Shown here piece by piece: positions 22,501-39,509 of a stretch of DNA of 64,000 nt (positions within the stretch are counted from its first letter, which is position 1; every line of letters begins with the position of its first letter). Below the pieces are notes generated by a model that saw only the letters and a list, made by a program, of their open reading frames with translations, was not told the origin of the DNA and did no database searches. This DNA is from Longimicrobiales bacterium (lineage in GTDB: Bacteria; Gemmatimonadota; Gemmatimonadetes; Longimicrobiales; Gaopeijiaceae): contig OZ220702.1 of NCBI GenBank assembly GCA_965116645.1, positions 481,929 through 545,928 of the forward strand. The letters run 5' to 3'. The translations under genes were made by a program, and so were the position numbers.

Positions 22501-22541
22501 TGCTCCAGGTCGGTCGGGTCCCGGTATGCCCTTGGCGGAAG

Positions 22542-22868: not shown

Positions 22869-23127
22869 GCTCCGCGAACATCTCGTCAGCGTTGGCGAAT
22901 CGGGCCGTCCCCCGTCTCATCATCTCCTCCGACTCGGCCATCGCCTGTCGGGTCCGGGCGTTCGGCACCTTGAGTTCCAGGGGGAAAGCCTGATCGACCG
23001 CGATTCGGTGGAAGAACAGCCGCACAGCCTCCGAGGCCGTCAACCCCATCGCCGCGAGCGCCGCCATCGCCTTCCGCTTCATCTCCGTGTCCATGCGGAC
23101 GTGGAGCATCGAACTGTGTGTCTTCAT
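22846..23127 (-). CDS. dinJ: DinJ/RelB-family antitoxin
   Basis: SMLHVRMDTEMKRKAMAALAAMGLTASEAVRLFFHRIAVDQAFPLELKVPN is the DinJ RHH signature. It lies immediately upstream of yafQ. Start taken at the internal ATG 23127. Confidence 0.8.
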   Translation of the reverse strand: MKTHSSMLHVRMDTEMKRKAMAALAAMGLTASEAVRLFFHRIAVDQAFPLELKVPNARTRQAMAESEEMMRRGTARFANADEMFAELEEARDQ

Positions 23128-23164
23128 CGGAAGACCTCCTGTGTCGCAATTGCGATATAAGGTG

Positions 23165-24481: not shown

Positions 24482-24522
24482 GCGTACCGCACTGACGCCG
24501 CCGCCGAAGCCCCCACCCCCCC

Positions 24523-25176: not shown

Positions 25177-25323
25177 GGTGAGCGTGCGGAAAACGGGTGA
25201 TCTGAGTCGGTTGCAAGGGGGATACGTTCCCGGACGATGAGAGACGACGCAACCCCACCTTGACAGTGGGTCCGCCCATATCAGGTTGGATGTGTAGCGG
25301 ATCGCCAACCATGGAGGTGCCGA

Positions 25324-25521
25324 ATGAAGTACCGCGTGGCGCTTGAGGAGTCTGACGAGGGCTATTGCGTCTGGGTCCCTGGTCTGCCGGGGTGCGTGTC
25401 GCAAGGGGATACGGAGGAGGAAGCTCTGGAGAACATCGCGGCCGCGCTCCGGGAATACCTGGAGGTGGCGGTGGAGAACGCTGCGGGCACCGTGCTTCGA
25501 GAAATCGAGGTCGCCGTATAG
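25324..25521 (+). CDS. hicB: HicB-family antitoxin (UPF0150), no adjacent HicA
   Basis: MKYRVALEESDEGYCVWVPGLPGCVSQGDTEEEALENIAAALREYLE is the canonical HicB/UPF0150 fold signature. Confidence 0.8.
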   Translation: MKYRVALEESDEGYCVWVPGLPGCVSQGDTEEEALENIAAALREYLEVAVENAAGTVLREIEVAV

Positions 25522-25547
25522 GCTGTGCCGAGGATAGCTGTGGTCCC

Positions 25548-25799
25548 ATGCGAGAAATCACTGCCAAGGAAGCCAAGAACCGGTTCGGCCAGCTCCTCCG
25601 GTCCGCCCAGCAGGGACCCGTGCGCGTCACCCGGAACGGGACGCCGGTGGGCGTGATGCTGTCGGTGGAGCAGTTCGAACGCCTGCGCGGAACCGCGTGG
25701 GACCGGTTGGCCGCGGCGATGGACGCCATGAGCCGGGAGGCAGCCGCCAAAGGCCTGACGCCTGCGGCGTTGGAGTCCCTGTTCACCGAAGAGAGCTGA
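25548..25799 (+). CDS. Phd/YefM-family antitoxin
   Basis: MREITAKEAKNRFGQLLRSAQQGPVRVTRNGTPVGVMLSVEQFERL is the Phd/YefM N-terminal signature. Confidence 0.8.
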   Translation: MREITAKEAKNRFGQLLRSAQQGPVRVTRNGTPVGVMLSVEQFERLRGTAWDRLAAAMDAMSREAAAKGLTPAALESLFTEES

Positions 25800-25800
25800 C

Positions 25801-25884
25801 AGGGTCGTACTTGGCACCAGCGTTCTGATCGACGCCTTGCCTCATCCAGAGGGAACCGCTCCGCTCAAACGGATCGCACAGTAA
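25801..25884 (+). pseudogene. remnant of a PIN (VapC-type) toxin gene
   Basis: The frame reads RVVLGTSVLIDALPHPEGTAPLKRIAQ*. This is the PIN N-terminal strand with the catalytic Asp replaced (LDTS to LGTS), no start codon, and a stop after 27 codons. Confidence 0.55.
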
Positions 25885-26010
25885 TGTAGGCTTTACCAAA
25901 TGTAAAGAGAAGGCGACATCATCAGAAGGCGACATCATCGAGCCTGGATCCTCTCTCTGGCACCCTTGAACGCAGACACGCTCTGCCTCGGGGGAATCCG
26001 CTCGGCCCGG

Positions 26011-26475
26011 TCACCCGGGGCCAGGATTGATCGCGGAGTCGATCCGCTTGGCTTTCCACTTGCGTGTCTGCCCAGGCTGAACCACCGCCTCGAATAGCGC
26101 TTCGATTCCCTCCTCGGGTTCATCCATCCGATCCATCGCCTTGGGAGGGTCGATTCGGACCCCGGTCGTGAGGATCTCGGAGACAGCCTTCCAGAAACGG
26201 TCCGTTGTCGGTTCCGCAGGCTCCGGCTCGTAGGGAACCTTCCGTGCCTTGGCCCAACGCCGGATCTGATCTCTCACAATGCGCATGAGCCTCCGGCTCG
26301 TGGGATCGACACCACGCACCTCTTCATCCTGTGCCAGCCACCGCCATCCGTACCACGGGTTGCTCGTCTGCCATGCGACGACACCCACGGGGACGGTGCG
26401 GTCGCTATGGTCGTCCAGACTGACCCGGATCACGCAATACCCTTGGCCAATCTGCCAATCCGATCGTGAGTACAT
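26011..26475 (-). CDS. hypothetical protein, DUF3037-like
   Basis: GYCVIRVSLDDHSDRTVPVGVVAW... resembles the DUF3037 N-terminus. Start taken at ATG 26475, because the upstream in-frame codons are the duplicated higB remnant. Confidence 0.4.
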   Translation of the reverse strand: MYSRSDWQIGQGYCVIRVSLDDHSDRTVPVGVVAWQTSNPWYGWRWLAQDEEVRGVDPTSRRLMRIVRDQIRRWAKARKVPYEPEPAEPTTDRFWKAVSEILTTGVRIDPPKAMDRMDEPEEGIEALFEAVVQPGQTRKWKAKRIDSAINPGPG

Positions 26476-26545
26476 GCTGCGAAAGGTGACGAGCCTCGCG
26501 GGACGACGCCATGGTGGGACGGAGCACGGACTTGGCACGCTGACG

Positions 26546-26653
26546 TAGTCCACGTCGACGCCGTCGCCGTCCACGTTGTGTGGCGAACGGTGCCTGAAAC
26601 GCAGAAGCCCCGAGGACGAAGACCGCCTCGGGGCTCCTACCTCAGCGTCTTGC
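26546..26653. repeat. 108-bp direct repeat, copy A (higB 3' remnant + hairpin + duplicated transporter 3' end)
   Basis: My manual alignment with 27904-28011 gives 9 mismatches in 108 positions. The right-hand ~50 bp differ at a single loop position. Confidence 0.85.
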
Positions 26654-26756
26654 TGCGCCCGAAGGCGTGTGCAGTAGAGGACGACCTGAGGAATTACACT
26701 TGAACTATCGTCCTTTCCTATCCGAAACGCAACTCTCAGTCTCTCGCGGAGCCGCT

Positions 26757-27470
26757 ATGCTGTCCATCGGAAGCCTTCGAAGCGCTCTTTCGGCGGAGCG
26801 GCTAGGCGCCTACGCCCTGCCCACCGACACCGACGAGGTCGACAGCGTGGCTAGGTACCTGTGGAATCTGGCGCTGTGCAGCGCTCTCCAACCGGCCCTT
26901 CACACCCTTGAGGTCACCGTCCGGAACCACCTCTTCAAGACCTCGAGAAGGATCGTAGATGAGACCACGCTGAGTTTCGACAAGGTTCCATGTTGGCTCG
27001 ATGCTCGACCCTCGCTCCTCGTTGATCGCGAGCGACAGAACGTCGAGCAGGCGAAAGCCACGCTCAAGATGCGGGGAAGTCCGATGACTGAGGGACGGCT
27101 GGTCTCGGTCTTGGGCTTTGGTTTCTGGGTGAGTCTGTGTAAGAGGCCATATGAGCAGGGCCGCACCAGCGGACCGCGCCTCTGGCCTGATATGGCGAGA
27201 AGGGGATTCCCGCATCTACCCAAGGCCAAGCGCACACGCAGCCAGCTATTCCACTCCTTGGATCGGCTCCGAGACCTCCGTAACCGCATTTCTCACCATG
27301 AGGCCGTGTGGGACCGGAAGCTCAACCGAAGCCATCAGGAGATCCTCGAGACCGTAGCCTGGATCAACCTGGACCTGGCGGCGACGCTGAGGGCACACTC
27401 GCCGCTGCCAGCGGTACTCTACAAGGGAGTGACCGGCTTCCGCGCTCAAGCCGAGGCCATTATCAAGTGA
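26757..27470 (+). CDS. Abi_2-family (AbiD/AbiF-like) abortive-infection protein
   Basis: LSAERLGAYAL...ARYLWNLALCSALQPALHTLEVTVRNHLF...LGFGFWVSL...LRDLRNRISHHEAVW is the Abi_2 (PF07751-type) pattern. ATG 26757 is preferred over the upstream GTG 26667. Confidence 0.75.
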   Translation: MLSIGSLRSALSAERLGAYALPTDTDEVDSVARYLWNLALCSALQPALHTLEVTVRNHLFKTSRRIVDETTLSFDKVPCWLDARPSLLVDRERQNVEQAKATLKMRGSPMTEGRLVSVLGFGFWVSLCKRPYEQGRTSGPRLWPDMARRGFPHLPKAKRTRSQLFHSLDRLRDLRNRISHHEAVWDRKLNRSHQEILETVAWINLDLAATLRAHSPLPAVLYKGVTGFRAQAEAIIK

Positions 27471-27584
27471 TGTCGGCGCTGAACACGTGAATCCATCGAA
27501 CGACGACGCCCTGGACATAGCCCTTGCCAAACTGCGGTCCGGCGGTCTCGCGATCCCTCACGCGAATCTTCGGCCGAACCCCCC

Positions 27585-27872
27585 TCACCCCCTCGCGAAC
27601 CGCTCAACTGCGATTCCCGCGGCCCGAGTGCGTGCCTGCCAGAGATCGTAAGCCATCTGCATCCCCAGCCACGTCTCGGGGGTCGAGCCGAAGGCCTTCG
27701 ACAGCCGGATCGCCATCTCCACCGAGACCCCCGCGCGCCCGTTCAGCAATTCCGAAAGCGCCTGACGCGCGACGCCCAATCCCTCGGCAGCCCGAGTCAC
27801 CGTAAGACCCAGCGGTTCCAGGCATTGCCGCCGAACGATGCCGCCCGGGTGCGGTGGATCGTGCATGGCCAT
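27585..27872 (-). CDS. higA: HigA-family (XRE HTH) antitoxin
   Basis: HPGGIVRRQCLEPLGLTVTRAAEGLGVARQALSELLNGRAGVSVEMAIRLSKAFGSTPETWLGMQMAYDLW is the canonical HigA/VapI sequence. AGGAGAG SD lies upstream. Confidence 0.85.
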   Translation of the reverse strand: MAMHDPPHPGGIVRRQCLEPLGLTVTRAAEGLGVARQALSELLNGRAGVSVEMAIRLSKAFGSTPETWLGMQMAYDLWQARTRAAGIAVERFARG

Positions 27873-27887
27873 GGCTGGTCCTCTCCT

Positions 27888-27959
27888 TCAGTGATAGTCC
27901 AGATAGTCCACGTCGACGGCATCGCCGTCCAGGTCGTGTGGGAAACGGTTCCTGAAACT
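27888..27959 (-). pseudogene. higB: 3' remnant of a HigB (killer protein) toxin gene
   Basis: The frame ends SFRNRFPHDLDGDAVDVDYLDYH*, the characteristic HigB C-terminus (..GDA.D....DYH), directly upstream of higA. Everything further upstream is replaced by the transporter terminator. Confidence 0.6.
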
Positions 27960-28011
27960 CAGAAGCCCCGAGGACGAAGAACGCCTCGGGGCTCCTACCT
28001 CAGCGTCTTGC
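27904..28011. repeat. 108-bp direct repeat, copy B
   Basis: Partner of 26546-26653. It contains the real stop and last codons of the symporter gene, the terminator hairpin and the higB remnant. Confidence 0.85.
27964..27993 (-). terminator. hairpin terminator of the glycan operon
   Basis: On the minus strand AGCCCCGAGG-N10-CCTCGGGGCT (10-bp GC-rich stem) starts 2 nt after the symporter stop and is followed by TCTGAGTTTC. Confidence 0.55.
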
Positions 28012-30265
28012 CCCGACCCCGCCGCCGCTCCAGCTCCGCCCTCACCTTGCCCGCGCTCTCCTCCGTGATCGGGTACCGGTACACGGCGTAGATCGCGATC
28101 CCCGACGCGATCAGCGGCACGAAGGCGTCGTAGAAGCGCAGCCAGAAGATCGTCCCTTCGGGCTGATTCGCGCCCAGGGAGGCGTCGAGTCCGGTCGAGT
28201 AGAGCAGGAAGCCGCCGAGCACGATCGCGCCGCTCTGGCCGAGTTTCACCATCCACCAGAACACCGATCCGAACATGCCTTCGCGCCGCTCACCGGTGGT
28301 TATCTCGTCCAGGTCCACCACATCGGCGATCATCGAGCCCATCAGGGTAAAGAGGCCGCCGAGCCCGAAGGCCAGGAACGGGGCCGGCAGCAGCGCCAGC
28401 AGGGGCTGGTCGGGCGTGTAACAGAACCACTTGAGCGCGTATCCGAGCATCGAGATGCCCGTCGACACGAAAAACGCGTTCTTCTTGCCGATTCTGGTGC
28501 CGAGCCAGGTGACGAGCGCGATCACCAGGAACCCCGTGACGGTGCCGAGCGTGCCGACCACGCCCGCGAGCGCCGCCCCCTCCGGGACGTTGCCGCCTGT
28601 GATGTAAAAGGCGAACACCCAGAACTGGAATTGGGAGATCATGATGAAGCTGTTGAACATCAGGAAGGTTGCGATGCAGAGCATCAGGAAGGGGCCGGTC
28701 CTGAGCGTCTGCCACAGGCCGCGCAGAAACTCCAGGGCGCTCTGCTCAATGCCGTGGGCTATCGTACGCTCATCCGTGCCTCGCGACCCGGAAGCCCCAC
28801 CTTCCGTACGCCCATCCGCACGTCGTCTCCCGGGGCCACGCCCGCCCGCGCGTTGATCCGCGCCGCCTGCCCGGGAGCCTCGGCGGTCCCGGCCCGCTTC
28901 GGCCGCGGCGCTTCCCCCGATCACGCGCTCCCGCAGAAAAATCGCCGGCAGCACGCCCAGCACGATCGTCGCCACGCAGATCGCGAGTGCGACGAAACGG
29001 GCGCCGTCCATCTGGTTCCGGAACCACACCGGGTTGGTCGCGATGACCAGGAACCAGGGCCCGATGACGAACACTGTGTTGGACACGAAGTTCTGCACGC
29101 CCATCAGGCGGGTGCGCTCGTTGTAGTCGGGGGTGAGTTCGTAGCCGAGCGCCACCCACGGCGTCGCGAAGATCGTGTAGGCCAGGAAGAACACCAGCGA
29201 CCCGATGAGGAAGTACCAGAAGTAGGCCCGCTGGCTCCAGCCCTCTCCCGTTTCGTCCGGAGTCCAGATGTCGATGTGGAGGTGCGTCATCGCACTGGCG
29301 TCGACCGGGTTGCTGCCGAAGTCGATTGTCGCGACGCGAAGGTTGGTGTAGTGCTTGACTTCGTCTCCGCCGGCCCGGGCATCGGCTACTTCGGCAACGT
29401 CCGGCCCGGCGGACCACGATCCGACCGGCACATCGTCGTAAGCGGCGCTGAAGAGGGAGATCACGTCCTCGGGCGGGACCCCGGGGGCCGGTGCTCCGGT
29501 GACAGGGACGGTGGCGCCCTCGATGTCCTGGGCGGGAGGCACCGCCGTCTGGAGACCGGCTGCGGCCGGGCCGACGCCCTCGACGCCCTGGTTGGGAGAT
29601 GCCGACGCCGGGAGTGCGCCCACCGCCGCGCCGCCCAGGCGGTAGAAATACACGTTGTCGACATAGACCTCGGTCAGGTCGCCCGAGATCACCATCTGCG
29701 CCAGGTGTTCGCGCGTGGCGAGCCCGTCGAAGTCGCTCAGCGGCACGTCCACGCTCACCCATGCGCCCGTCACCAGCGTGGGGGGCAGGACGGCGACCTC
29801 GTCCTCGACATCGTCGACCACCTCCACCGTGAAGATCTCCCTCAGCGCATCGCCTGCGGCCCGCAGCCAGCCCACGGGTTCGTCCGTCTCGCCGCTGTAG
29901 ACCCCGTCGGCGCCGTGGTCGACCAGCTTGAGCCGCAGCTGTGTCGGCGCCGGCATCTGCCACAGCAGCAGGAAGATGACCCCCGCCGAAATCGCGCCCG
30001 CGAAGAGGAACGGGCGCCGCCGCCCCCAGCGCGACTTCGTCTTGTCCGACACGAAGCCGACGAGCGGATCGGTGAGTGCGTCGAAGAAGCGCGGCAGGCC
30101 GCCGAGCAGGCCGACGGCCCGGAAGTCGACGCCGAGCGCCAGGGTCAGTACGGCCATCATGTTGCCGATGCCCTGGCCCAGCAGATTGTTCGTGAACCCG
30201 CCGATCCCGTAGATAATCTTGTGTGGGAACGATACCCGGTCTTCGGGAGCGGTCCGCTTGCTCAC
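27995..30265 (-). CDS. GPH-family (MelB/YicJ-like) glycoside:cation symporter with a ~240-aa CBM-like insertion in loop 3-4 and an Arg/Gly-rich central loop
   Basis: YGIGGFTNNLL, FDALTDPLVGFVSDKTKSRWGRRRPF (the GPH loop 2-3 motif), ALGYELTPDYNERTRL, and multiple hydrophobic helices. GTG start lies 4 nt after the GH16 stop. Confidence 0.85.
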   Translation of the reverse strand: MSKRTAPEDRVSFPHKIIYGIGGFTNNLLGQGIGNMMAVLTLALGVDFRAVGLLGGLPRFFDALTDPLVGFVSDKTKSRWGRRRPFLFAGAISAGVIFLLLWQMPAPTQLRLKLVDHGADGVYSGETDEPVGWLRAAGDALREIFTVEVVDDVEDEVAVLPPTLVTGAWVSVDVPLSDFDGLATREHLAQMVISGDLTEVYVDNVYFYRLGGAAVGALPASASPNQGVEGVGPAAAGLQTAVPPAQDIEGATVPVTGAPAPGVPPEDVISLFSAAYDDVPVGSWSAGPDVAEVADARAGGDEVKHYTNLRVATIDFGSNPVDASAMTHLHIDIWTPDETGEGWSQRAYFWYFLIGSLVFFLAYTIFATPWVALGYELTPDYNERTRLMGVQNFVSNTVFVIGPWFLVIATNPVWFRNQMDGARFVALAICVATIVLGVLPAIFLRERVIGGSAAAEAGRDRRGSRAGGADQRAGGRGPGRRRADGRTEGGASGSRGTDERTIAHGIEQSALEFLRGLWQTLRTGPFLMLCIATFLMFNSFIMISQFQFWVFAFYITGGNVPEGAALAGVVGTLGTVTGFLVIALVTWLGTRIGKKNAFFVSTGISMLGYALKWFCYTPDQPLLALLPAPFLAFGLGGLFTLMGSMIADVVDLDEITTGERREGMFGSVFWWMVKLGQSGAIVLGGFLLYSTGLDASLGANQPEGTIFWLRFYDAFVPLIASGIAIYAVYRYPITEESAGKVRAELERRRGRGKTLR
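29237..29950 (-). other. inserted domain: circularly permuted copy of the lipoprotein glycan-binding-like repeat
   Basis: aa ~106-343 read LRLKLVDHGADG...TGAWVSVDVPLSDFDGLATREHLAQMVISGDLTEVYVDNVYFYR, then a P/A/G linker, then EDVISLFSAAYDDVPVGSW...KHYTNLRVATIDFGSNPVDASAMTHLHIDIWTPDE. Confidence 0.8.
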
Positions 30266-30269
30266 CGGG

Positions 30270-31151
30270 TCACTCGGCGCGGTAGACGCGCACCCAGTCG
30301 ACGAGCATGGTCTGTGGGAAGGTCGTGGACGCGTTCGGTGGTCCGACGAAGGTGCCGCCCACGGCGACGTTCAGGAGCAGGAAGAAGGGGTGGTCAAAGA
30401 CCCACCGGCCGGGCGGATCGTCCCGGTCCACGGCGTGGTAGCGCTCTCCGTCCATGAACCAGACGATGCGCTCCTCCGTCCATTCGATCGCGAACTCGTG
30501 GAATCCGGTGTCGAAACGGGCACCGGTGAGCGCGTAGCGTGCGCCGATTCCGCCGCCACCGGAATACCTGGGCCCGTGAACGGTTCCGTGTACGATCGTC
30601 GGCTCCTGGCCGCGGTACTCCATGATGTCGATCTCTCCGCAATCCGGCCAACCCACGGTGCCGAAGTCGCTGCCGAGCATCCAGAAGGCGGGCCAGATGC
30701 CCTGCCCGCTGGGCAGCCGGATGCGCGCTTCGAAGCGGCCATACGCCTGCTCGAAAAGCCCCTCGGTCTTGATGCGACCCGACGTGTAGGCGCTCCCCTG
30801 GTAGGATTCGCGGCGAGCTGTGATCGCCAGGTTGCCGTTGCCGTCGAGTGACACGTTTTCGGGACGGTCGGTGTCGTACTCCAGCTGCCTGTTGCCCCAG
30901 TCGGTGCCGATGTCGAAGGTCCAGTTGGCGGGATTGGGAAGCTGTCCGGCCGGGCCGTCGAATTCGTCGCTCCAGACCAATGTCCAGTCGGGCTCGGGCT
31001 CGGCGCCGAAGCTGTCGCATGCCAGGGACAGGAGGATCAGCGGAAGCATCCCGGGGACGAGCTCTCGCGAGCACCGAGCCCTTCGAATGCCGCGGCGCCC
31101 CTGTCCACGGGCAGTCAGGGCGAGGATAAGCCGGCGGCACACGCCGGTCAT
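30270..31151 (-). CDS. GH16 endo-beta-1,3-glucanase (laminarinase), lipoprotein
   Basis: WSDEFDG, GRFEARIRLPSGQGIWPAFWMLG and the catalytic GEIDIMEYRG (E-x-D-x-x-E) motif. Lipobox LLSLAC. ATGA overlap with the ROK stop (alternative start at 31049). Confidence 0.9.
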   Translation of the reverse strand: MTGVCRRLILALTARGQGRRGIRRARCSRELVPGMLPLILLSLACDSFGAEPEPDWTLVWSDEFDGPAGQLPNPANWTFDIGTDWGNRQLEYDTDRPENVSLDGNGNLAITARRESYQGSAYTSGRIKTEGLFEQAYGRFEARIRLPSGQGIWPAFWMLGSDFGTVGWPDCGEIDIMEYRGQEPTIVHGTVHGPRYSGGGGIGARYALTGARFDTGFHEFAIEWTEERIVWFMDGERYHAVDRDDPPGRWVFDHPFFLLLNVAVGGTFVGPPNASTTFPQTMLVDWVRVYRAE

Positions 31152-32365
31152 GCCGCAATCACACCGGGAAACAGCCGGGGATTGGCCAGGGCAGCGACCA
31201 GGACGTGCGTGGCGGCGCCCAGAGCTACCGCGCGCTCGCCCAGGTCGCTGGTGCGGATGTCAGAAGCGGCTGCGGAGGCCACGAGCGTGCGGGTGGCGAC
31301 GGCTTCGCGCAGCGGGTTGACCAGCCGGTCGCCCGCCCGTGCCAGGCTCCCTCCAAGGATCACCGATCCGGGGTTCAGGAGGTTCAGCACCCCGGCGACC
31401 ACGATTCCCAGACGTACCGCGGCCTCGTTGACGACCTCCAGCGCGAGCGGGTCGTCGGCGAGGGCGGCGTCCTCGATCGCGCGGATTTCGGGCTCGGTTC
31501 CGGCCAGGGCGCTGTCGGGGAAGCGGCTCATGAGGCTCCTGGCCCGGTCGACGAGCTGGCGCGTGCCCACGAAGGTCGCCAGGCAGCCGCGGTTCCCGCA
31601 CACGCACTTGGGCCCGCTCGGATCGATCGCCACGTGACCGATTTCGCCCGCGACCCCCGTGGCCCCACGGTAGATCTCCCCGCCGATCATGATCCCCGCC
31701 CCCACCCCGGTGGCGACCTTCAGGTACACGAAATCGTCGATTCCCACCGCCTCCCCCCACCACCGCTCCGCCACCGCCCCCAGATTGGCGTCGTTGTCCA
31801 CGAAGACGGGTATCCCGAATACGCTGTTGAGACGGTCCAGCACGCCGTGCCCACGCCATGCGGGGAGAACCCGTTCCAGCACCCGGTCCGGCGACCCGGG
31901 ATCGACCGGGCTGGGCACGGCCACGCCGATTCCCATGAGCCGCGACCGGTCCCCGTTCCACTCGGCCAGACAAACCTCGCCCAGTCCGGTGATCAGCGCC
32001 TCGGCGCCCTTGGGATCACTGCGCACGGGGTGGGCGCGTTCCCGCCAGGCCAGCGTCCGCCCCCGCAGGTCCGTGAGGATCACCGAAATGTGCGTGGCTC
32101 CCACGTCCACCCCCAGGATCACGCCCGCATCGTCCTGGAACCCCACCAGAATGGGACGCCGGCCTCCACGGCTCTCGCCGGCGCCCACCTCCGCCACCAG
32201 CCCAGTGCCGAGGAGCCGCCCCACCACCTCCGAGATGGTGGAGCGGGACCTCCCGGTGTTGCGCGCGATCTCGGCGCGCGAAACCTCCCGTCGGCGCCAG
32301 ACGAGGTTGAGGACCGTCCTGGCCAAGTCGTCGTCCGGCGGCGCAACCGCCTCGCGCGGCATCAT
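31148..32365 (-). CDS. ROK-family transcriptional repressor (wHTH + sugar-kinase-like domain)
   Basis: wHTH VSRAEIARNTGRSRSTISEVVGRLLGTGLV. ROK core GVDVGATHISV, and the Zn motif GHVAIDPSGPKCVCGNRGCLA. ATG 32365 overlaps the upstream stop (ATGA). Confidence 0.9.
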   Translation of the reverse strand: MMPREAVAPPDDDLARTVLNLVWRRREVSRAEIARNTGRSRSTISEVVGRLLGTGLVAEVGAGESRGGRRPILVGFQDDAGVILGVDVGATHISVILTDLRGRTLAWRERAHPVRSDPKGAEALITGLGEVCLAEWNGDRSRLMGIGVAVPSPVDPGSPDRVLERVLPAWRGHGVLDRLNSVFGIPVFVDNDANLGAVAERWWGEAVGIDDFVYLKVATGVGAGIMIGGEIYRGATGVAGEIGHVAIDPSGPKCVCGNRGCLATFVGTRQLVDRARSLMSRFPDSALAGTEPEIRAIEDAALADDPLALEVVNEAAVRLGIVVAGVLNLLNPGSVILGGSLARAGDRLVNPLREAVATRTLVASAAASDIRTSDLGERAVALGAATHVLVAALANPRLFPGVIAA

Positions 32366-35300
32366 TTGCGCAGGTAAACGTTGTCGACGAACACGGTATT
32401 GGGGTCGCCCGAGAGGATCAGTTGCGCGAGATGTCCCCGCGCCGTGAGTGCCGTGAAGTCCGATAGCGGGATATCGTAGCTTAGCCACTGGCCGGTCGCG
32501 AGCGCCGGGTCCGAACTTGCGGTCAGCGAGATCTCATGTTCGGTGTCGTCGCCTCCGCCGAACGCGCCATCGGCACCGAAGTCGACCAGCTTGACCTTGA
32601 AGGCGGCGGGGGCGGCAGTGGGGTCGGGGGTCCAGATGTCGATGCGGAAATGGGTCATCCCGGTGGCGTCGACGGTATTCGAGGTGAACTCGATACCCGC
32701 GAAGACGAGGTTCGTGTACTTCCTGGTGGCGTTTCCGGCGATCTGCACATCCTCGACATCGGCCTGGTCCCACGAGGCGGACCAGGTGTCGACCGTCACG
32801 TCGGTGTAGGCGTCGCTGAAGAAGGAGATTACGCTGTCCGCGTGGTGCGACGGGGTGGGCGCCGCCTCGGAAGGCTCGCTCGGAGACACCGCATAGAAGT
32901 AGACATTGTCCAGGAACACCGTGTTCGGGTCGCCGGAGATGATCAGCTGGGCGAGGTGTTCGCGGGCAGCCAGGTTGGTCATGTCGGCGAACGCCAGGTC
33001 GTAGCTGACCCACTGGCCGGTGGCCAGCGCGGGATCGGAGGCGGCGGTAAGCGTGACCTCGTGCTCCGTGTCGTCGCCTCCGGCGAACGCGCCGTCGGCC
33101 CCGAAATCGACCAGCTTGACCTTGAACGCCGCGTTCACCGTCTCGTCGGGCGTCCAGATGTCCATGTGGAAGTGGGTCATCCCGGCGGCGTCGATGGGCG
33201 CGGACGTGAACTCGATGCCCGCGAAGACGAGATTCGTGTACTTCTTCACGGTGTCAGCCTCGATCACCACGTCCTCGACGTCGGCCTGGTCCCACGACGC
33301 GGACCAGGTGTCCACCGCGGCGTCGGTGTACGGGCCGCTGAAGAGCGAGATCACGGCGTCCGCCGCGTGCGTCGGGGTCGGAGCGGGCGCGCTCGGTGCT
33401 GCCGGCGCCGCCCCCTTCCGGAAGTACACGTTGTCGACGTAGAGCGTATTCGGGTCGCCTGAAATGATCAGCTGCGCCAGGTGTTCCGTTTCGGCGAGGC
33501 CCGTGAAGTCCGCGAGCGCCAGGTCCAGTTGCACCCATTGCTCCGACACCAGGCCGTCGGCGGCCGTTATGGTGACTTCGTGCTCGGTGTCGTCGCCGCC
33601 CCCGTCCCAGACGCCGTTTGCGCCGAAGTCCACCAGCTTGACCTTGAACGCCGCGTTCACCGTCTCGTCCGGCGTCCAGATGTCCATGCGGAAGTGCGTC
33701 ATGTCGGCTGCGTTGACGGTCGCCGAGGTGAATTCGATCCCGGCGAACACCAGGCCGGTGTACTTCTTGGTGGCGTTGCCCGCGACCTCCACGTCCTCGA
33801 CGGTCGCCACATCCCAGTCCGCCGACCAGGTGTCCACCGTCACGTCGTCGTATGCGTCGCTGTAGAGCGAAATCACGTCGTCGGCCGCGTCGCCGGGCGC
33901 CGGGGCCGCCTCGGTCGGCACGGGCTCCGGAGGCGGCGCCTCGCCGCGCCGGAAGTAGACGTTGTCCACGTAGACCGTGTTCGGGTCGCCCGAGATGATC
34001 AGCTGCGCCAGGTGTTCCCTCGCCGCGAGCCCGGGGAAGTCCGTGAAGGGCAGGTCCAGCTGCACCCACTCTTCCGTCGAGAGCCCGTCGTCCGTGTTGA
34101 GGACAACCTCGTGCTCACTGTCGTCGCCGCCCCCGAACGTGCCGTCCGCGCCGAAGTCCACGAGCTTCACTCTGAACGCTGCGGCCGCCGTCTCGTCCGG
34201 CGTCCAGATGTCCATCCGGAAGTGGGTCGCGTGCGTCGCGTCCACGGTCTGCGAGGTGAACTCGACGCCTGCAAAGGTCAGGTTCGTGTATCTCTTTGCC
34301 GCGTTCCCCGCGATCTCCACGTCCGCGACGTCGGCCTGATCCCAATCGGCGGACCAGGTGTCCACCGTCACGTCTTCGTAGGCGTCGCTGAAGAGCGAGG
34401 TGACGTCCTCGGCCGCGTGGGTCGGCGCCGGCGGCCCCGAGGTGGGCGCGGCCTGCAGCATGACCGTGACCGCCGCGCCCGCGCTCGCGCTTCCCGATGT
34501 CGCGGTGACCGTCGTCGCCCCGTCCGCGACCGCGGTGACCAGCCCGTTCGCATCCACCGTCGCAACCGCCTCGTCCGCCGAGGCCCAGCTCACCGTCGCC
34601 CCGTCGATCACGTTCCCGTTCGCGTCGGCCACCTCAGCCGCGAGCTGCGCCGTCTCGCCGGCTACGATGAGGTGCACCGAGTCGGGCGCGACCGTGACAG
34701 CCGCGGCTTCCTGCTCGACCGTGACGGTTCCGGTTCCGCTCAGGCTGCCCGACGTCGCGGTGATCGTCGCCGTGCCGTTGGCGACCGCGGTGACGAGCCC
34801 GTCGGCGTCGACCGTGGCCACCGCCTCGTCCCCGGAGGACCAGCTCACCGAGGCGCCGGAGATCGCGTTCCCGTTCGCATCCTGCACCTCGGCCGTGAAC
34901 TGGGCCGTCTCTCCGACGGCAGAGAGAGTCACCGACCCGGGTGTGACCGACACCGCCGTCGCAGCCTGCGCCACGCTGACGGACGCCGTACCGCTCGCTG
35001 TGCCCGAGGTCGCCGTAATCGTCGCCGTGCCGTTGCCCGCCGCGGTGACGAGCCCCGTTGTGTTCACCGACGCGACCGCGTTGTCGCTCGAGCTCCAGGA
35101 TACCGACGCACCGGCCATCACCTCCCCGTTCTGGTCGCGGACCGTGGCGCCGAGCAAGACGGTCTCGCCCAGCGATGAAAGCGAAGCCGTGGCGGGGGCA
35201 ATCGTGACCGTCGTGGCCACGGGCGGCTCGACGGGATCGTCGCCGCAGGCCAGCATTCCGCACACAAGGAGCGCGGCGAGCGCGCCGACCCTGCCCCGTG

Positions 35301-35373
35301 GGTATGAGAGGCGGCGGGGGGAAGATCCGGGCGAGAGCCGGCCCGGGACTGAGCGGTGGCTGAGCGACGTCAT
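32362..35373 (-). CDS. cell-envelope lipoprotein: 3 x Big_2 Ig-like domains + 4 x ~165-aa CBM-like repeats (putative glycan-binding protein)
   Basis: Lipobox GMLAC. Three units of the type VTIAPATASLSSLGETVLLGATVRDQNGEV...VSWSSSDNAVASV...GNGTATITAT. Four units of the type DVISLFSDAYxDVTVDTWSAxWDQADVEDV..KKYTNLVFAGIEFTS..MTHFRMDIWTPDET..FKVKLVDFGADG..EHLAQLIISGDPNTVYVDNVYF. Confidence 0.85.
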   Translation of the reverse strand: MTSLSHRSVPGRLSPGSSPRRLSYPRGRVGALAALLVCGMLACGDDPVEPPVATTVTIAPATASLSSLGETVLLGATVRDQNGEVMAGASVSWSSSDNAVASVNTTGLVTAAGNGTATITATSGTASGTASVSVAQAATAVSVTPGSVTLSAVGETAQFTAEVQDANGNAISGASVSWSSGDEAVATVDADGLVTAVANGTATITATSGSLSGTGTVTVEQEAAAVTVAPDSVHLIVAGETAQLAAEVADANGNVIDGATVSWASADEAVATVDANGLVTAVADGATTVTATSGSASAGAAVTVMLQAAPTSGPPAPTHAAEDVTSLFSDAYEDVTVDTWSADWDQADVADVEIAGNAAKRYTNLTFAGVEFTSQTVDATHATHFRMDIWTPDETAAAAFRVKLVDFGADGTFGGGDDSEHEVVLNTDDGLSTEEWVQLDLPFTDFPGLAAREHLAQLIISGDPNTVYVDNVYFRRGEAPPPEPVPTEAAPAPGDAADDVISLYSDAYDDVTVDTWSADWDVATVEDVEVAGNATKKYTGLVFAGIEFTSATVNAADMTHFRMDIWTPDETVNAAFKVKLVDFGANGVWDGGGDDTEHEVTITAADGLVSEQWVQLDLALADFTGLAETEHLAQLIISGDPNTLYVDNVYFRKGAAPAAPSAPAPTPTHAADAVISLFSGPYTDAAVDTWSASWDQADVEDVVIEADTVKKYTNLVFAGIEFTSAPIDAAGMTHFHMDIWTPDETVNAAFKVKLVDFGADGAFAGGDDTEHEVTLTAASDPALATGQWVSYDLAFADMTNLAAREHLAQLIISGDPNTVFLDNVYFYAVSPSEPSEAAPTPSHHADSVISFFSDAYTDVTVDTWSASWDQADVEDVQIAGNATRKYTNLVFAGIEFTSNTVDATGMTHFRIDIWTPDPTAAPAAFKVKLVDFGADGAFGGGDDTEHEISLTASSDPALATGQWLSYDIPLSDFTALTARGHLAQLILSGDPNTVFVDNVYLRK
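32365..34422 (-). repeat. four tandem ~500-bp coding repeats (CBM-like domain units)
   Basis: The protein-level repeats are clearly visible. Each unit is separated by a Pro/Ala-rich linker. Confidence 0.85.
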
Positions 35374-37421
35374 GGGTTGTCTCCGATTGGATTGCTACTG
35401 TTGAATTGCGCGGGCGACATTTGTGCAGGCCCTGCTGCTGGCCGCCGGAAATAGATGTTGTCGACGTAAACGGTGTTCAGATCCCCCGAGATGATCAGCT
35501 GGGCGAGGTGTTCCCTCCCCGTGAGGTTGGCGAAATCCGCGAGCGGGAGATTCAACGACACCCACGCTCCGGTCGCCAGCCCTCCGGCGGCCGTGATCGT
35601 GACCTCGTGTTCGCTGTCGTCCCCCCCGCCGAACCCTCCATCCGCACCGAAGTCCACCAGCTTCACCTTGAAGCCCGCGGCCGCAGTCTCGTCCGGAGTC
35701 CAGATGTCCATCCGGAAGTGCGTCATGCCTCTGACGTTCAGGGTCTGCGAAGTGAACTCGATTCCCGCAAACGACAGGTTCGTGTACTTCTTCGCTCCGT
35801 TCCCCCCGATTGCCACGTCCTCCACGTCGGCCTGGTCCCACTCCGCCGACCAGGTGTCGACCGTCGCGTCGTCATAAGCGTCGCTGAAGAGCGAGATCAC
35901 GTTCGCCGCCGGGTCCTGCGGGGTAGGCGCGGGGTCCGGTGGACCGGTCGGATCGACGGGGGTCTCGCCCCGAAAGAAGTAGATGTTGTCCAGGTAGACG
36001 GTCCGGCTCGACCCCGAGATGATCAGCTGGGCGAGATGGCCGCGGCCCGCCAGCCCGCTGAAGGCCGAGAGCGGAATGTCCAGGACGTTCCACGTTCCGG
36101 GCGCGATCGGCGTCGGCGACACCGGAGTGAATGTGACTTCGTGTTCGCTGTCGTCCCCCCCGCCGAAGACGCCATTCGCGCCGAAGTCCACAAGCTTGAT
36201 GCGGAAGGTCGTCGCGTCGTTGGTCCAGAGGTCGACGTGGAGGTGCGTCATGGAAGTGGCGTCGATCAGCGACGAGGTGAACTCGACGCCCGCAAAGGAC
36301 AGATTGGTGTACTTCTTGACCGGATTCCCGGCGACCACCACGTCGTCCACGTCGGCCTGGTCCCACTCGGCCGACCAGGTGTCGACGTTCACGTCCTCGT
36401 AGGCGTTGCTGAAGAGGGAGATGACATCTTCGGCTGGCACCATCGGCACCGGGGGCGCGTCTTCGGGCGGCGTCTCGACGTTGACGGTGAGCGCTCCCGC
36501 GGCGGGGGTCGGTCCCAGCGTCGCCGTTATCGTGGCGGTGCCGGGGCGGACCAGCGTGATGGTGCCATCGGCTTCCACCGACGCGACGCCCGGGTCCGAA
36601 GAGGTGAAGGTGAAGTACGCGGATGCGGCGCCCACGGTCACGTCGGCCCCGTTGACGTCGAAGGTCACGCGCGTGCCGCCGACCGCCAGGGTGCCGCCCA
36701 CCTCGCTGCTGACCGTCCGTGTGTCGATCACCGGCTGCGGATTGATGATCGTGCCGAGGCGCTCGAACTGCACGTCGTCGAAGTAGAGCTCGTAGCCGAC
36801 CGGATACTCGGAAGCGTCCGCGACGAGGAAGAGGCCCGGCTCTTCGGTCAGCAGGGAGGGCAGCGGCAGGGGGACCGCGTACTTCGTCCAGCGAGTCGAG
36901 AGCGACAGGTTGTCGAGCGTGGCCGGGAAGCGGGAGGTGCCGGTGTTGTCGTCCCCGAAACCAACCCGGTCCAGCGTCGCGGCCGTGCTCGCGCGGGCCC
37001 AGAAGGTCAGGGCGTCAAACCCCGAGAGGTCGCGCGGCACGGTCGAGAAGAAGGCGCCTCCGGCGTAGCCGCCCGTCGGGTCGTTTGGTGCCGGAACGGT
37101 GAACTTCAACGCCGCGGTCCCGCGGTACACCAGGTCGCGCTCGATATCGAGGGCGTCGACCTTGGATCCCCCGAAGGCCCCGTAGTGGAGCCCCGGCGCG
37201 AAGTCGTCGTAGAAGACTCCCGGGTCGGGCGGGAAGGCCGCCGGGTCGAGTTCGGTCAGATCGCGTTCGCAGGCGGTGGCGAAGGCGAGCGGGAGGAGGG
37301 CGACGCTCCAGGCTCGGGAGCCGGGTCCCGATGGCCGGATCGGGCGTTCCCGCAGCCGGAATGGACCGCGCCGCGACCGGGGTCCGCTACCCGATGGCCG
37401 GCGCGCGGTGCTCGCAGTCAT
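35370..37421 (-). CDS. cell-envelope lipoprotein: N-terminal beta-sandwich-like domain + Big_2 + 2 x CBM-like repeats
   Basis: Lipobox AFATAC and SD AGAGG before the ATG. Big_2-like FTFTSSDPGVASVEADGTITLVRPGTATITAT. Two copies of the same repeat as in the downstream gene (EDVISLFSNAYEDVNVDTWSAEWDQADV... and ANVISLFSDAYDDATVDTWSAEWDQADV...). Confidence 0.85.
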   Translation of the reverse strand: MTASTARRPSGSGPRSRRGPFRLRERPIRPSGPGSRAWSVALLPLAFATACERDLTELDPAAFPPDPGVFYDDFAPGLHYGAFGGSKVDALDIERDLVYRGTAALKFTVPAPNDPTGGYAGGAFFSTVPRDLSGFDALTFWARASTAATLDRVGFGDDNTGTSRFPATLDNLSLSTRWTKYAVPLPLPSLLTEEPGLFLVADASEYPVGYELYFDDVQFERLGTIINPQPVIDTRTVSSEVGGTLAVGGTRVTFDVNGADVTVGAASAYFTFTSSDPGVASVEADGTITLVRPGTATITATLGPTPAAGALTVNVETPPEDAPPVPMVPAEDVISLFSNAYEDVNVDTWSAEWDQADVDDVVVAGNPVKKYTNLSFAGVEFTSSLIDATSMTHLHVDLWTNDATTFRIKLVDFGANGVFGGGDDSEHEVTFTPVSPTPIAPGTWNVLDIPLSAFSGLAGRGHLAQLIISGSSRTVYLDNIYFFRGETPVDPTGPPDPAPTPQDPAANVISLFSDAYDDATVDTWSAEWDQADVEDVAIGGNGAKKYTNLSFAGIEFTSQTLNVRGMTHFRMDIWTPDETAAAGFKVKLVDFGADGGFGGGDDSEHEVTITAAGGLATGAWVSLNLPLADFANLTGREHLAQLIISGDLNTVYVDNIYFRRPAAGPAQMSPAQFNSSNPIGDNP

Positions 37422-37484
37422 CCTCTACCTTCCCGCGTTGAATCCTGGGCGCGAACGTGCGGTTGTCGCGGCACGCCGAATCCG

Positions 37485-37543
37485 CCCCGTCAGACTTTGT
37501 TCGGTCGCCGAACAAAGTGCGGAGACAGGTCGCGCGGTGTCAA
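37485..37543 (-). promoter_or_regulatory. promoter-operator module 2: TTGACA-N18-CA + palindrome CTTTGTTCGG-CGA-CCGAACAAAG
   Basis: Read on the minus strand: TTGACA (37543-37538), an 18-nt spacer, CA, the palindrome (37517-37495), then TCTGACGGGG. This has the same architecture and nearly the same sequence as 11005-11063. It lies ~75 nt upstream of ATG 37421. Confidence 0.7.
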
Positions 37544-37681
37544 GGAGGGGGACGGCGGGATGCCGGCCACCCTGCGCGCCGTGGCGTGGACCGGCTCCAG
37601 TGGGGCAGCCCGGATAGCGCCGATCCGGGCATGGCGGTACTGTTGGAACCCCGCCCGGATCTCCCCACAACGCTGAGCGTC

Positions 37682-37918
37682 ATGAGCAAACCTGATTCAG
37701 CCCGGTTGCGCCACCCCGTCGGAGTCTCGGTAGGCGAGGGAGCCAACTATGTCGTCTGCAACGACGGTGCAGTATTCCAGCTGCGGCTCCGGGGGTGGTG
37801 GAAAGAGGTGGCGCCGATCCCGGGCTCGCAGCGGGCTCTTGAGGTTCAGCACCGGCCTCCGAAACTGCTCGATCCGCAGGAGGGAAGCACGTTGCCGCGG
37901 GCTGCGTCGGACCCGTAG
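37682..37918 (+). CDS. hypothetical small protein
   Basis: 78-aa ATG ORF divergent from the glycan operon, with moderate G/C third-position bias. I recognised no motif. Confidence 0.2.
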   Translation: MSKPDSARLRHPVGVSVGEGANYVVCNDGAVFQLRLRGWWKEVAPIPGSQRALEVQHRPPKLLDPQEGSTLPRAASDP

Positions 37919-37964
37919 CATCGCGCGTCGCCGCCCCTGGCCGTCACGCTGAGCCACGGCTGCA

Positions 37965-39509
37965 TCACGGCTCGCCGGCCAGACTCGTCGCCCACTCCGG
38001 CACCACCGAAGGATCGATGTCGAAGACCGTCAGCCCCACGGTGAACACGATGGTCGCGATCACCAGCACGCCTATGAGGTTCAGCAGGATCCCCGTGCGG
38101 GCCATCTCGCCCACGGTGATGCGGTCGCTGCCGAAGACGATCGCGTTGGGCGGCGTGGCGACCGGCATCATGAAGGCGCAGGAGGCGGACAGCGTCGCCG
38201 GGATCATCAGCACGAGGGGATGGGTGCCCGTCACGACCGCCACCGACGCAAGGATCGGCAGGATCATCTCGGTGGTGGCGGTGTTGCTCGTGAACTCGGT
38301 GAGGAAGGTGAGCGCCACGCAGACGATCAGGATCAGCAGGAAGACCGGCAGGTTGCCGAGGACCTCGAACTGGTTGCCGATGAGCTGGGCGAGCCCGGTG
38401 TCCTGAAAGCCGGCCGCCAGCGCGAAGCCGCCGCCGAAGAGCAGCACGATGTTCCACGGCAGGCGGGGGATGACGTCCGGTCCCATGACGCGGGTTGCGC
38501 CGCTCTCGCGGTTCCGCGCCGGGATGAAGAAGAGGATGGACGCGAGGGTGATGGCGATCGTGCCGTCGTCGATCATCCCCGGATCGGGGAGGATGCGGGA
38601 CCAGCCCGGGATGGTGAGGAAGCCGAGCTCCAGGTCGACCCGGAAGACCCACAGCAGCGCGGTCGTGACGAAGACCCCCATCACCGCGCGCTCCTCGAAG
38701 GCGATCCTGCCGAGACGGCCGCGCTCGACCTTCACGACCTCCTGGTCGACGTTGACGCTGTCGGGCACCCGGTGGAAGACCTTCGTGATCATCAGCCAGG
38801 CCGCGACCAGCATGATCAACCCCACCGGAAAGGCCATCACGATCCAGTGCCCGAAGGCGATCGGCGGCGCCTCGGGGAAGAGGATCTGGAAGATCCGCAC
38901 GAAGGAGAGGTTGGGCGGCGTGCCCACAAGGGTGGTGAGCCCGCCCACGGTGGCGCCGTACGCGATCCCGAGCATGAGTCCCACCGAGAGGTGGCGCGCC
39001 TCGTCGCGGCCGAACTCGCCCTCGATCTGCAGGATGATCGCGAGCCCGATCGGGACCATCATCACCGCGGTGGCCGTGTTCGAGATCCACATCGAGAGGA
39101 AGGCGGCCGCGATCATGAACCCCAGCACGATGCGCGCGGGCCCGCCCCCCACCGCGTGGATGATGTTGAGCGCGATGCGCCGGTGAAGGTTCCACTTCTC
39201 CATCGTGAGCGCGATCATGAACCCGCCGAGGAAGAGCACGATGGTGCTGTTGAAGTAGATCGGCGCGGTATCGTGCCCGGACATTATGCCCAGGAGCGGG
39301 TAGAGGACGAGGGGGAGCAGCGCCGTGGCGAAGAGGGGGATCGCGTCGGTGACCCACCAGATCGCCATCAGCAGCGCGACCGCGGCCAGGCGGCTGGCGG
39401 GCACGTTCTCCGGGTCGACCGGGAAGATGAGCAGCAGGACGAAAGCGGACAGGCCGAGCCACAGACCGATGGCCCGTCCCTTTGGAGAAGTGTGTTTTTC
39501 GACGGCCAT
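37965..39509 (-). CDS. DASS/SLC13-family divalent anion:Na+ symporter
   Basis: AVALLMAIWWVTDAIPLFATALLPLVLYPLLGI and the repeated SNTATT-type hairpin motifs (WISNTATAVMMVPI, FTSNTATTEMILPI) are typical of DASS transporters. Confidence 0.85.
   Translation of the reverse strand: MAVEKHTSPKGRAIGLWLGLSAFVLLLIFPVDPENVPASRLAAVALLMAIWWVTDAIPLFATALLPLVLYPLLGIMSGHDTAPIYFNSTIVLFLGGFMIALTMEKWNLHRRIALNIIHAVGGGPARIVLGFMIAAAFLSMWISNTATAVMMVPIGLAIILQIEGEFGRDEARHLSVGLMLGIAYGATVGGLTTLVGTPPNLSFVRIFQILFPEAPPIAFGHWIVMAFPVGLIMLVAAWLMITKVFHRVPDSVNVDQEVVKVERGRLGRIAFEERAVMGVFVTTALLWVFRVDLELGFLTIPGWSRILPDPGMIDDGTIAITLASILFFIPARNRESGATRVMGPDVIPRLPWNIVLLFGGGFALAAGFQDTGLAQLIGNQFEVLGNLPVFLLILIVCVALTFLTEFTSNTATTEMILPILASVAVVTGTHPLVLMIPATLSASCAFMMPVATPPNAIVFGSDRITVGEMARTGILLNLIGVLVIATIVFTVGLTVFDIDPSVVPEWATSLAGEP

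Follow-up and report, generated by a model that had tools for sequence, protein, structure and literature searches.

How can a bacterium capture and import a marine beta-glucan through a locus that encodes neither a SusC/SusD pair nor an ATP-binding cassette (ABC) transporter? Laminarin is among the largest fluxes of the marine carbon cycle, and its uptake by bacteria is understood almost solely through the SusC/D loci of Bacteroidota. The question is raised by a compact cluster of five genes in a 64,000-nucleotide stretch of DNA from a Longimicrobiales bacterium of the phylum Gemmatimonadota (assembly GCA_965116645.1, contig OZ220702.1, positions 481,929 to 545,928 of the forward strand), which is called the window below and to whose numbering positions refer unless a genome position is given. 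The cluster, on the minus strand, encodes two lipoproteins with repeats, a ROK-family regulator, a GH16 lipoprotein and a symporter of the GPH family. With a probability of roughly 0.78, it is one half of a ROK-repressed utilization locus for laminarin-type beta-1,3-glucan in an uncultured, marine, Palauibacter-like member of the Longimicrobiales. An earlier note on this DNA, made from the sequence, had proposed a complete path of glucan binding, cleavage and uptake for the operon together with two enzyme genes located some distance away, and its claims are followed up here by computational analysis.

Organization of the operon

In the six-frame list of open reading frames (ORFs), the first gene encodes lipoprotein 1 (35370-37421, 683 amino acids) and is followed by the genes of lipoprotein 2 (32362-35373, 1003 amino acids), the ROK-family regulator (31148-32365, 405 amino acids counted from its ATG), the GH16 lipoprotein (30270-31151, 293 amino acids) and the GPH/MFS_2 symporter (27995-30265, 756 amino acids, with a GTG start). 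Three of the four gene junctions are ATGA overlaps, at 35370-35373, 32362-32365 and 31148-31151 (...CCCATGACG, ...AAATGATG and ...GGCATGACC), and the GH16 stop is separated from the symporter GTG by the 4-nucleotide gap TGACCCGGTG at 30266-30269. A terminator-like hairpin predicted by folding lies immediately 3' of the symporter stop (27960-27997, minus strand), with an energy of -29.7 kcal/mol and z = -4.95, and none of 200 shuffled sequences folds as well. In a consensus scan, terminator-like sites within the genes of the cluster were weak and occurred at about the chance rate. The five packed genes, their overlaps and gap, their order and the strong hairpin at the cluster end (given as 27964-27993) had all been described in the earlier note, and the ORF list, the junction sequences, the Pfam matches and the folding energy agree with that description. 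An alternative start of the ROK gene, a GTG at 32488 within the lipoprotein 2 gene, would give a longer ORF; it is unsupported, since the alignments of relatives start at residues 3-18 of the 405-residue form. Upstream of the first gene, the hexamer TTGACA (37538-37543, minus strand), read from the sequence, resembles the -35 element of an operon promoter, from which the five genes would be co-transcribed as a single transcript.

The ROK regulator and its candidate operator

The sugar-binding ROK domain of the regulator (PF00480, 1.1e-58) covers residues 125-427 of the long ORF, contains the zinc-binding cysteine motif CVCGNRGC and is preceded by an N-terminal region of winged-helix type. The whole length of the protein can be aligned to the models of NagC and Mlc (positions 16-384 of 399 in NagC), with scores well under the equivalog cut-offs of both, and about 80 residues ahead of the ROK domain correspond to the DNA-binding part of these two regulators. 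Judged by these profile alignments, it is a NagC/Mlc-like regulator and the orthologue of neither.

A candidate operator for this protein is the perfect 25-bp palindrome ACTTTGTTCGGCGACCGAACAAAGT at 37494-37518 (minus strand), 72 nucleotides before the ATG of lipoprotein 1. The palindrome recurs with one mismatch at 11030-11054, against 0.00 matches expected by chance, and there it forms, together with TTGACA, a further copy of the promoter region (11005-11054, plus strand) in front of a gene for a GH158-like enzyme. In both places TTGACA (11005-11010 and 37538-37543) precedes the palindrome by 19 nucleotides, and GTCTGAC follows it. The operator also lies upstream of the GH158-like gene in all four relatives that were checked.

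The co-occurrence of operator and regulator could be followed in 76 related loci, which were gathered through the repeat of the lipoproteins alone and whose gene content was judged within 6 kb. Of these loci, 36 had both a ROK gene and the operator core TTTGTTCGn5CGAACAAA, 29 had neither, and 11 were discordant, several of the latter being cut by contig ends; because the 76 loci are mutually related, these counts are descriptive and do not constitute a statistical test. Together with the full-length NagC/Mlc-like architecture, this co-occurrence fits the earlier suggestion that the ROK protein represses the operon in which it is encoded. The pair of ROK gene and operator could be used for predicting beta-glucan regulons in metagenomes.

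A genome scan allowing at most two mismatches returned 13 core sites, most of them intragenic, and a single ROK regulon defined by the core was rejected. Apart from the two sites in the window, the core occupies a promoter position in two places and no others. One is a perfect copy (G000:C1:4360745-4360765) 95 nucleotides upstream of the threonyl-tRNA synthetase gene thrS, and the other is a copy with one mismatch (G000:C1:4353816-4353836) 180 nucleotides upstream of a sodium:solute symporter (SSF) gene.

A locus split into two halves

The gene order lipoprotein 1, ROK, GH16 and symporter, preceded by the operator, was found in 11 genomes of the same genus, which bears out the conservation that the earlier note had proposed to check by comparative genomics. 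The operator core stands upstream of the first operon gene in 10 of these 11 loci, and lipoprotein 2 is present in just three of them besides the locus described here. In seven of the 11 genomes the symporter gene is followed downstream by a convergently oriented GH3 gene; in four of those seven it is within about 110 bp of the symporter, with the GH158-like gene adjoining. The latter gene was seen where the fetched DNA reached, namely in four same-genus genomes.

In the window, the two convergent halves are separated by 11.8 kb (16147-27994) of accessory genes, comprising an AAA/DUF4143 ATPase, a two-component system and toxin-antitoxin modules. This stretch is missing from the matching intergenic gap of those same-genus genomes in which GH3 abuts the symporter. 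Because GH3 adjoins the symporter in relatives, the stretch is, as far as gene order can tell, a set of accessory genes whose insertion divided what had been one contiguous locus of seven genes. The functional link between the operon and the distant enzyme genes, which the earlier note had assumed, thus gains from the shared promoter and operator and from the adjacency in relatives.

Enzymes and the likely substrate

The GH16 lipoprotein carries a lipobox (..LSLAC) and, in its translation, the catalytic motif EIDIME (E-x-D-x-x-E), and it matches PF00722 with an E-value of 2.9e-25. Its closest solved structures are 2hyk (5e-78), 3atg, 3azx, 4dfs, 2vy0, 3iln and 4crq, with E-values up to 1e-54. 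All of the top ten matches in the Protein Data Bank (PDB) are endo-beta-1,3-glucanases or laminarinases, in line with the laminarinase-type assignment made earlier from the EIDIME motif, a type that corresponds to CAZy subfamily GH16_3. No agarase or porphyranase is among these best relatives, so that the non-laminarinase clade considered in the earlier note receives no backing. The enzyme matches a kappa-carrageenase model at 4e-11 and the lichenase-type BglS model at 9e-13.

In the other half of the locus, a secreted enzyme of clan GH-A is encoded at 11087-14317 (plus strand). In Pfam it matches Glyco_hydro_2_C alone (3e-12), and its sole specific PDB match is a weak one to the GH158 structure 9oro_A (1.8e-7, residues 110-308), in which both catalytic glutamates (in GNE and TEFG) are aligned. 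The enzyme may be a distant member of GH158 or belong to a sister family. GH158 is known solely as a family of endo-beta-1,3-glucanases. The adjoining GH3 gene (about 14323-16146, plus strand) encodes the N- and C-terminal GH3 domains of Pfam and no signal peptide, and its product is a predicted cytoplasmic exo-beta-glucanase that matches ExoP (3usz, an exo-1,3/1,4-beta-glucanase) at 1.1e-153 and barley ExoI at 1e-144. Pfam domains, PDB matches and start regions agree with the secreted GH-A enzyme and the signal-less GH3 enzyme annotated previously at 11087-16146. Since the GH16, GH158-like and GH3 families all point there, the substrate is most likely a laminarin-type beta-1,3-glucan, an assignment that the family matches have strengthened relative to the earlier note.

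Beyond its catalytic part, the GH158-like enzyme ends in a C-terminal domain of about 596 amino acids (12527-14314, plus strand), which is 57-67% identical across Gemmatimonadota, Calditrichota and Bacteroidota. The domain has no Pfam match at E-values up to 1 and no PDB profile match at E-values up to 10. It contains no hydrophobic helix and one cysteine pair close to its end, and hydrophobic residues alternate in the C-terminus of the enzyme (..EIRTYLHIGM). The whole architecture of about 1050-1075 amino acids is found in more than 5,000 protein clusters, which are annotated just as 'GH2 TIM barrel-domain protein', 'glycosidase' or 'hypothetical'. A relationship of the C-terminal domain with the neighbouring CBM9/DUF5916 protein was considered and rejected, as neither BLASTP nor hhalign detected any. 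That neighbour (7475-9757, plus strand), encoded 1.3 kb upstream of the promoter that serves the GH158-like gene, is one of two paralogous CBM9_1 plus DUF5916 proteins that are 33% identical. The gene of the other (G000:C1:849899-852187, minus strand) has an operator-like site with two mismatches 564 nucleotides upstream.

Repeat lipoproteins and their CBM-like module

Lipoprotein 1 has a long signal sequence with a cysteine lipobox (..LAFATAC) and an N-terminal domain of about 200 amino acids without family assignment, which shares 43-55% identity with proteins of Zixibacteria, Ignavibacteria, Calditrichota and Bacteroidota loci. Its downstream part contains one weak Big_2 domain in Pfam and two repeats that resemble a carbohydrate-binding module (CBM). 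Lipoprotein 2 (lipobox ..GMLAC) consists of three Big_2 domains and four such repeats. These counts, obtained from Pfam and the repeat alignment, coincide with those read from the sequence in the earlier note, and in same-genus loci the number of repeats per lipoprotein ranges from 2 to 4. Acidic residues follow the lipobox cysteine in all three predicted lipoproteins of the operon (C-ERDLTE, C-GDDPVE and C-DSFGAE). This pattern is similar to the signal for surface export in Bacteroidota lipoproteins, and the three proteins may be located at the cell surface.

The repeat unit is about 165 amino acids long and unnamed; compared with the reference repeat, the six copies (2 + 4) show identities of 59-73%. 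No match to it was found in Pfam, in NCBIfam or among PDB sequences, the last being searched both by phmmer and by profile. An exhaustive search with the limit E <= 1e-3 returned 1971 representative clusters, of which 488 reach E <= 1e-30; among the best 150 of the 1971 clusters, proteins contain 2-10 copies. According to the genome records, the family occurs in Gemmatimonadota, Cloacimonadota, Calditrichota, Ignavibacteria/Melioribacteraceae, Zixibacteria and Bacteroidota, with identities of 55-68% between phyla.

An AlphaFold (AF2) model of the repeat, built from an alignment of 36 sequences, is a nine-stranded beta-sandwich of high confidence (pLDDT 94.8, pTM 0.90). Foldseek placed CBM11 and CBM30 nearest to it (probability 1.00, TM-score 0.58-0.66), the matched CBM11 structure being a complex with a beta-1,3-1,4 tetrasaccharide. 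Further neighbours are CBM6, CBM8, CBM28, CBM16, CBM22, CBM29 and CBM4; the best matches, to CBM11, CBM30, CBM6 and CBM8, have TM-scores of 0.55-0.66, and all fold matches together span 0.45-0.66 at 12-15% identity. The repeat is thus, on the evidence of its model, a CBM-fold module without a named family, and it may bind glycans.

The symporter and its permuted insert

The symporter matches PF13347 (MFS_2) at 1.2e-54 in three stretches that are split by an insert. Against TIGR00792 of NCBIfam it scores 145.7 bits, below the cut-off of 231; this shortfall is expected, because the insert splits the match, and is not evidence against membership of the GPH family. In the AF2 model (pLDDT 81.9, pTM 0.83), the membrane core is most similar to MFSD2A and MelB, with target TM-scores of 0.72-0.82. 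Homologues of full or near-full length number at least 119 among those listed, with identities of 54-91%.

By BLASTP and the AF2 model, the insert comprises 237 amino acids (residues 106-342; 29240-29950, minus strand) in the loop between transmembrane helices (TM) 3 and 4; it does not figure in the earlier note's description of the operon. Loop 2-3 (SDKTKSRWGRRRP) is rich in arginine and the central loop of about 50 residues is rich in arginine and glycine; as both would be cytoplasmic by the positive-inside rule and the model helices, loop 3-4 is expected to face the periplasm. The insert matches lipoprotein 2 with a BLASTP E-value of 5e-38, in a collinear alignment that spans the end of one repeat and the start of the next, and it consists of the C-terminal half of a repeat, a disordered linker of about 50 residues and the N-terminal half. 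Read from this alignment, it is a circularly permuted copy of the lipoprotein repeat. In the repeat model, the break point falls between strand ..DIWTPDET and strand FKVKLVDFG.., in the loop that joins them. AF2 models the strands in each half of the insert confidently and the linker (215-242) as disordered.

The insert is retained in the at least 119 listed homologues, and many of its invariant residues are common to the repeats. The TM3-TM4 loop measures just 2 amino acids in Calditrichota, Zixibacteria, Ignavibacteria and Bacteroidota orthologues and in those of some Gemmatimonadota, and the insert is restricted to one clade of Gemmatimonadota. The long symporter was found in 13 of 18 genomes of the genus and in none of 12 genomes sampled from the order's two other families, three of which gave weak matches only, at the level of the major facilitator superfamily (MFS). 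A tree was built from the repeats and the re-ordered inserts; all inserts group there in a single clade (100/100) that contains none of the lipoprotein repeats, which indicates a single acquisition. No donor lineage can be named from this tree, which resolves only the separation of the insert clade from the repeats. In a literature search of limited text scope, no GPH or MFS transporter described as fused to a CBM was found, nor was a description of the gene combination of this locus.

The same TM3-TM4 loop, exactly, is occupied in three symporter orthologues of Cloacimonadota (L066, L084 and L111) by an unrelated insert of about 170-180 amino acids. Homology of this insert to the repeat was rejected at an hhalign probability of 0.2-2.8%, and a weak hint (E 0.01) of CIA30, from a beta-sandwich clan, was noted; it may represent a convergent gain of a periplasmic domain. 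The central cytoplasmic loop of the symporter (28766-28924, minus strand; residues ~451-495) is modelled as disordered with pLDDT < 50, and its length varies among homologues of 681-759 amino acids.

Distribution across phyla and the place of SusC/D

The gene set is also found, at 40-67% identity, in metagenome-assembled genomes (MAGs) of Zixibacteria, Ignavibacteria, Calditrichota, Cloacimonadota and Bacteroidota. Most of the 76 related loci hold GH16, ROK and symporter genes, and several also have a GH158-like gene or a GH3 gene within 6 kb. For instance, one Bacteroidota MAG (locus L098) has the operator followed by the GH158-like, lipoprotein, ROK, GH16 and symporter genes, all on the same strand.

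Neither SusC/D genes (as Plug and SusD matches) nor ABC transporter genes were found in the cluster, and no Plug or SusD match was found in the window. About 35 Plug-domain genes and four SusD-like genes are present in the same genome, all outside the window. The earlier statement that the operon lacks SusC/SusD and ABC systems stands. The adjacent pair of SusC-like and SusD-like genes that marks a polysaccharide utilization locus (PUL) of the Bacteroidota type is not found at the locus, and among the 76 related loci a single one has a TonB-receptor or SusD-like match within 6 kb.

Proposed mechanism and alternative explanations

The following sequence of events is proposed. When substrate is absent, the ROK protein would bind the palindrome at the two promoters, before lipoprotein 1 and before the GH158-like gene, and it would be released by a product of glucan degradation, which the analogy with Thermotoga BglR suggests to be glucose or a beta-glucobiose. 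The first promoter would then drive lipoprotein 1, lipoprotein 2, ROK, GH16 and symporter as one unit up to the hairpin. The lipoproteins would capture the glucan by means of two and four CBM-like modules of beta-sandwich fold, which they present on Ig-like spacers, and the GH16 lipoprotein, together with the secreted GH158-like enzyme, would cut the glucan into oligosaccharides. These could be imported over the inner membrane by the GPH symporter, in which the permuted CBM-like insert would serve as a tethered binding domain, and the signal-less GH3 enzyme would free glucose in the cytoplasm.

Several points weigh against this picture. A consensus scan of 27500-38200 returned zero sigma-70 promoters, the proposed one included, which implies a non-canonical -10 element. 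The winged-helix and helix-turn-helix (HTH) Pfam matches of the ROK protein fall below the cut-offs. The operator core occurs at 11 further places in the genome, most of them intragenic; the short core alone is thus not specific and is an unreliable predictor of a regulon. One same-genus locus (G004; L041 / L122) has a ROK gene and no operator within three mismatches in 6.6 kb upstream. The repeat has no sequence relative of characterised function and its fold matches are distant (12-15% identity), so that its ligand specificity rests on the gene neighbourhood. Finally, no outer-membrane transporter is assigned, and a route for oligosaccharides over the outer membrane has to be supposed. The 'complete inferred path' of the earlier note was therefore worded slightly too strongly, as the outer-membrane step has no assigned component. 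As to the G004 locus itself, the full order of lipoprotein, ROK, GH16 and symporter is kept there.

The same architecture might serve a substrate other than laminarin, namely a mixed-linkage beta-1,3/1,4-glucan or a branched beta-1,3/1,6-glucan from fungi, yeasts or the food of an animal host. The best fold match of the repeat is the CBM11 complex with a mixed-linkage tetrasaccharide, the best relative of the GH3 enzyme is an exo-1,3/1,4-beta-glucanase, some of the GH16 matches are named beta-1,3(4)-glucanases, and the isolate names of relatives are consistent with sponge or coral MAGs. Nevertheless, this is rather unlikely when set against the top ten GH16 matches, all of them beta-1,3-glucanases or laminarinases, the far weaker lichenase-type model and the restriction of GH158, as far as is known, to endo-beta-1,3-glucanases. 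The repeat lipoproteins could also be taken for adhesins or host-interaction proteins with Ig-like domains and a lectin-like repeat, whose position in the operon would be incidental. Matches to Big_2, Big_1 and invasin-like domains and the apparent host association of relatives would agree with such a function. It is nonetheless improbable to a high degree, as in six phyla, free-living lineages included, proteins with the repeat are encoded next to GH16, the symporter and the GH158-like gene, the same repeat was recruited into a sugar symporter, and its fold neighbours are carbohydrate-binding modules.

There is likewise very little to be expected of the view that the five genes do not form a single unit of regulation, in which case the ROK protein would be a sugar kinase or regulate elsewhere and an unlinked factor would bind the palindrome. 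ROK kinases and regulators share a fold, the protein matches the ROK glucokinase subfamily at 4.5e-50, and both its sub-threshold HTH matches and the operator cores elsewhere in the genome would suit this view. What argues against it is the alignment of the region before the ROK domain with the DNA-binding part of NagC/Mlc, the joint presence or absence of ROK and operator in 65 of the 76 loci from several phyla, and the ATGA overlaps flanking the ROK gene, which make its independent expression unlikely. A ROK-repressed locus for laminarin-type beta-1,3-glucan is the preferred reading.

A broader and doubtful proposal, made as one joint claim, concerns a mode of SusC/D-independent glycan uptake common to the FCB group. 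The C-terminal domain of the GH158-like enzyme would act there in outer-membrane passage or as an anchor, multi-repeat lipoproteins of a new CBM family would feed glucan in, a permuted CBM would have been tethered to the MFS symporter in one Gemmatimonadota clade, and the Cloacimonadota insert would be convergent. If so, the symporter with its permuted CBM would be the secondary-transporter counterpart of a fused substrate-binding protein. The ROK-repressed laminarin locus would in itself represent a different and widely conserved solution in Gemmatimonadota, Zixibacteria, Ignavibacteria, Calditrichota, Cloacimonadota and some Bacteroidota, and it draws attention to three abundant but uncharacterised modules: the repeat (about 2,000 clusters), the domain fused to the GH158-like enzyme and the symporter with a binding module.

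Comparison with known systems

The BglR operon of Thermotoga maritima holds a GH16 laminarinase and a GH3 enzyme, and uptake proceeds through an ABC transporter with a separate binding protein. BglR (TM0032) is a ROK repressor encoded within the beta-glucan operon under its control, which serves beta-linked glucose polymers and beta-glucosides; it acts at palindromic operators of about 23 bp close to the promoter, and its effectors are glucose and cellobiose (PMC3553997). The present locus is similar in having a ROK gene inside a beta-glucan operon and a palindromic operator, and one of the best matches of its GH16 enzyme is the laminarinase of T. maritima (3azx). By contrast, it has a GPH symporter with a built-in CBM-like domain, whereas the BglR system is without repeat lipoproteins and a GH158-like enzyme. 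The operator sequences are unrelated (AATTTCTTTCTGAGGAAGATAGA for BglR, ACTTTGTTCGGCGACCGAACAAAGT here), and the phyla differ.

In the laminarin PUL that Christiangramia forsetii carries, the surface glycan-binding protein (SGBP) is a surface lipoprotein with N-terminal Ig-like modules and four tandem laminarin-binding beta-sandwich CBMs; it is encoded beside a GH16_3 enzyme, and relatives with up to eight repeats exist (bioRxiv 10.1101/2023.09.07.556657). Lipoprotein 2, with its three Big_2 domains and four repeats, shares this design. However, the PUL of C. forsetii is built around SusC/D, which the present locus and 75 of the 76 related loci are without. The fold neighbours also differ, being CBM11 and CBM30 for the repeat and the GH50-attached module 4BQ2 for the SGBP family. 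The repeat is probably a different family from the CBMs of this SGBP, from which its fold neighbours and the failure to match PDB sequences set it apart. In a survey of marine Gemmatimonadota, extracellular GH16_3 genes are mentioned and the present locus is not (PMC11316326).

The enzyme trio of a GH16 endo-glucanase, a GH158 or GH158-like enzyme and a GH3 exo-glucosidase, together with glycan-binding proteins, is common to the present locus and one of Bacteroides uniformis. The latter, a beta-1,3-glucan locus with GH16, GH158, GH3 and SGBPs, was reportedly described by Dejean et al. in 2020, and is said to rely on SusC/D import and hybrid two-component regulation, with a GH158 enzyme of about 420 amino acids. 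Compared with that enzyme, the GH158-like protein here has the extra conserved domain of about 596 amino acids. The symporter resembles MelB and other GPH symporters as well as MFSD2A in its MFS_2 core, its arginine-rich motif in loop 2-3 and its best fold matches. Unlike MelB and MFSD2A, it has a folded domain of 237 amino acids in periplasmic loop 3-4 and an arginine- and glycine-rich central loop of about 50 amino acids. Taken together, the comparison suggests that a BglR-like regulatory logic and the capture-and-cut logic of Bacteroidota laminarin PULs are the familiar parts of this locus. It departs from the known systems in dispensing with SusC/D and ABC transporters in favour of a GPH importer, in an unnamed CBM-like family, in the extra domain of its GH158-like enzyme and in the insert of its transporter.

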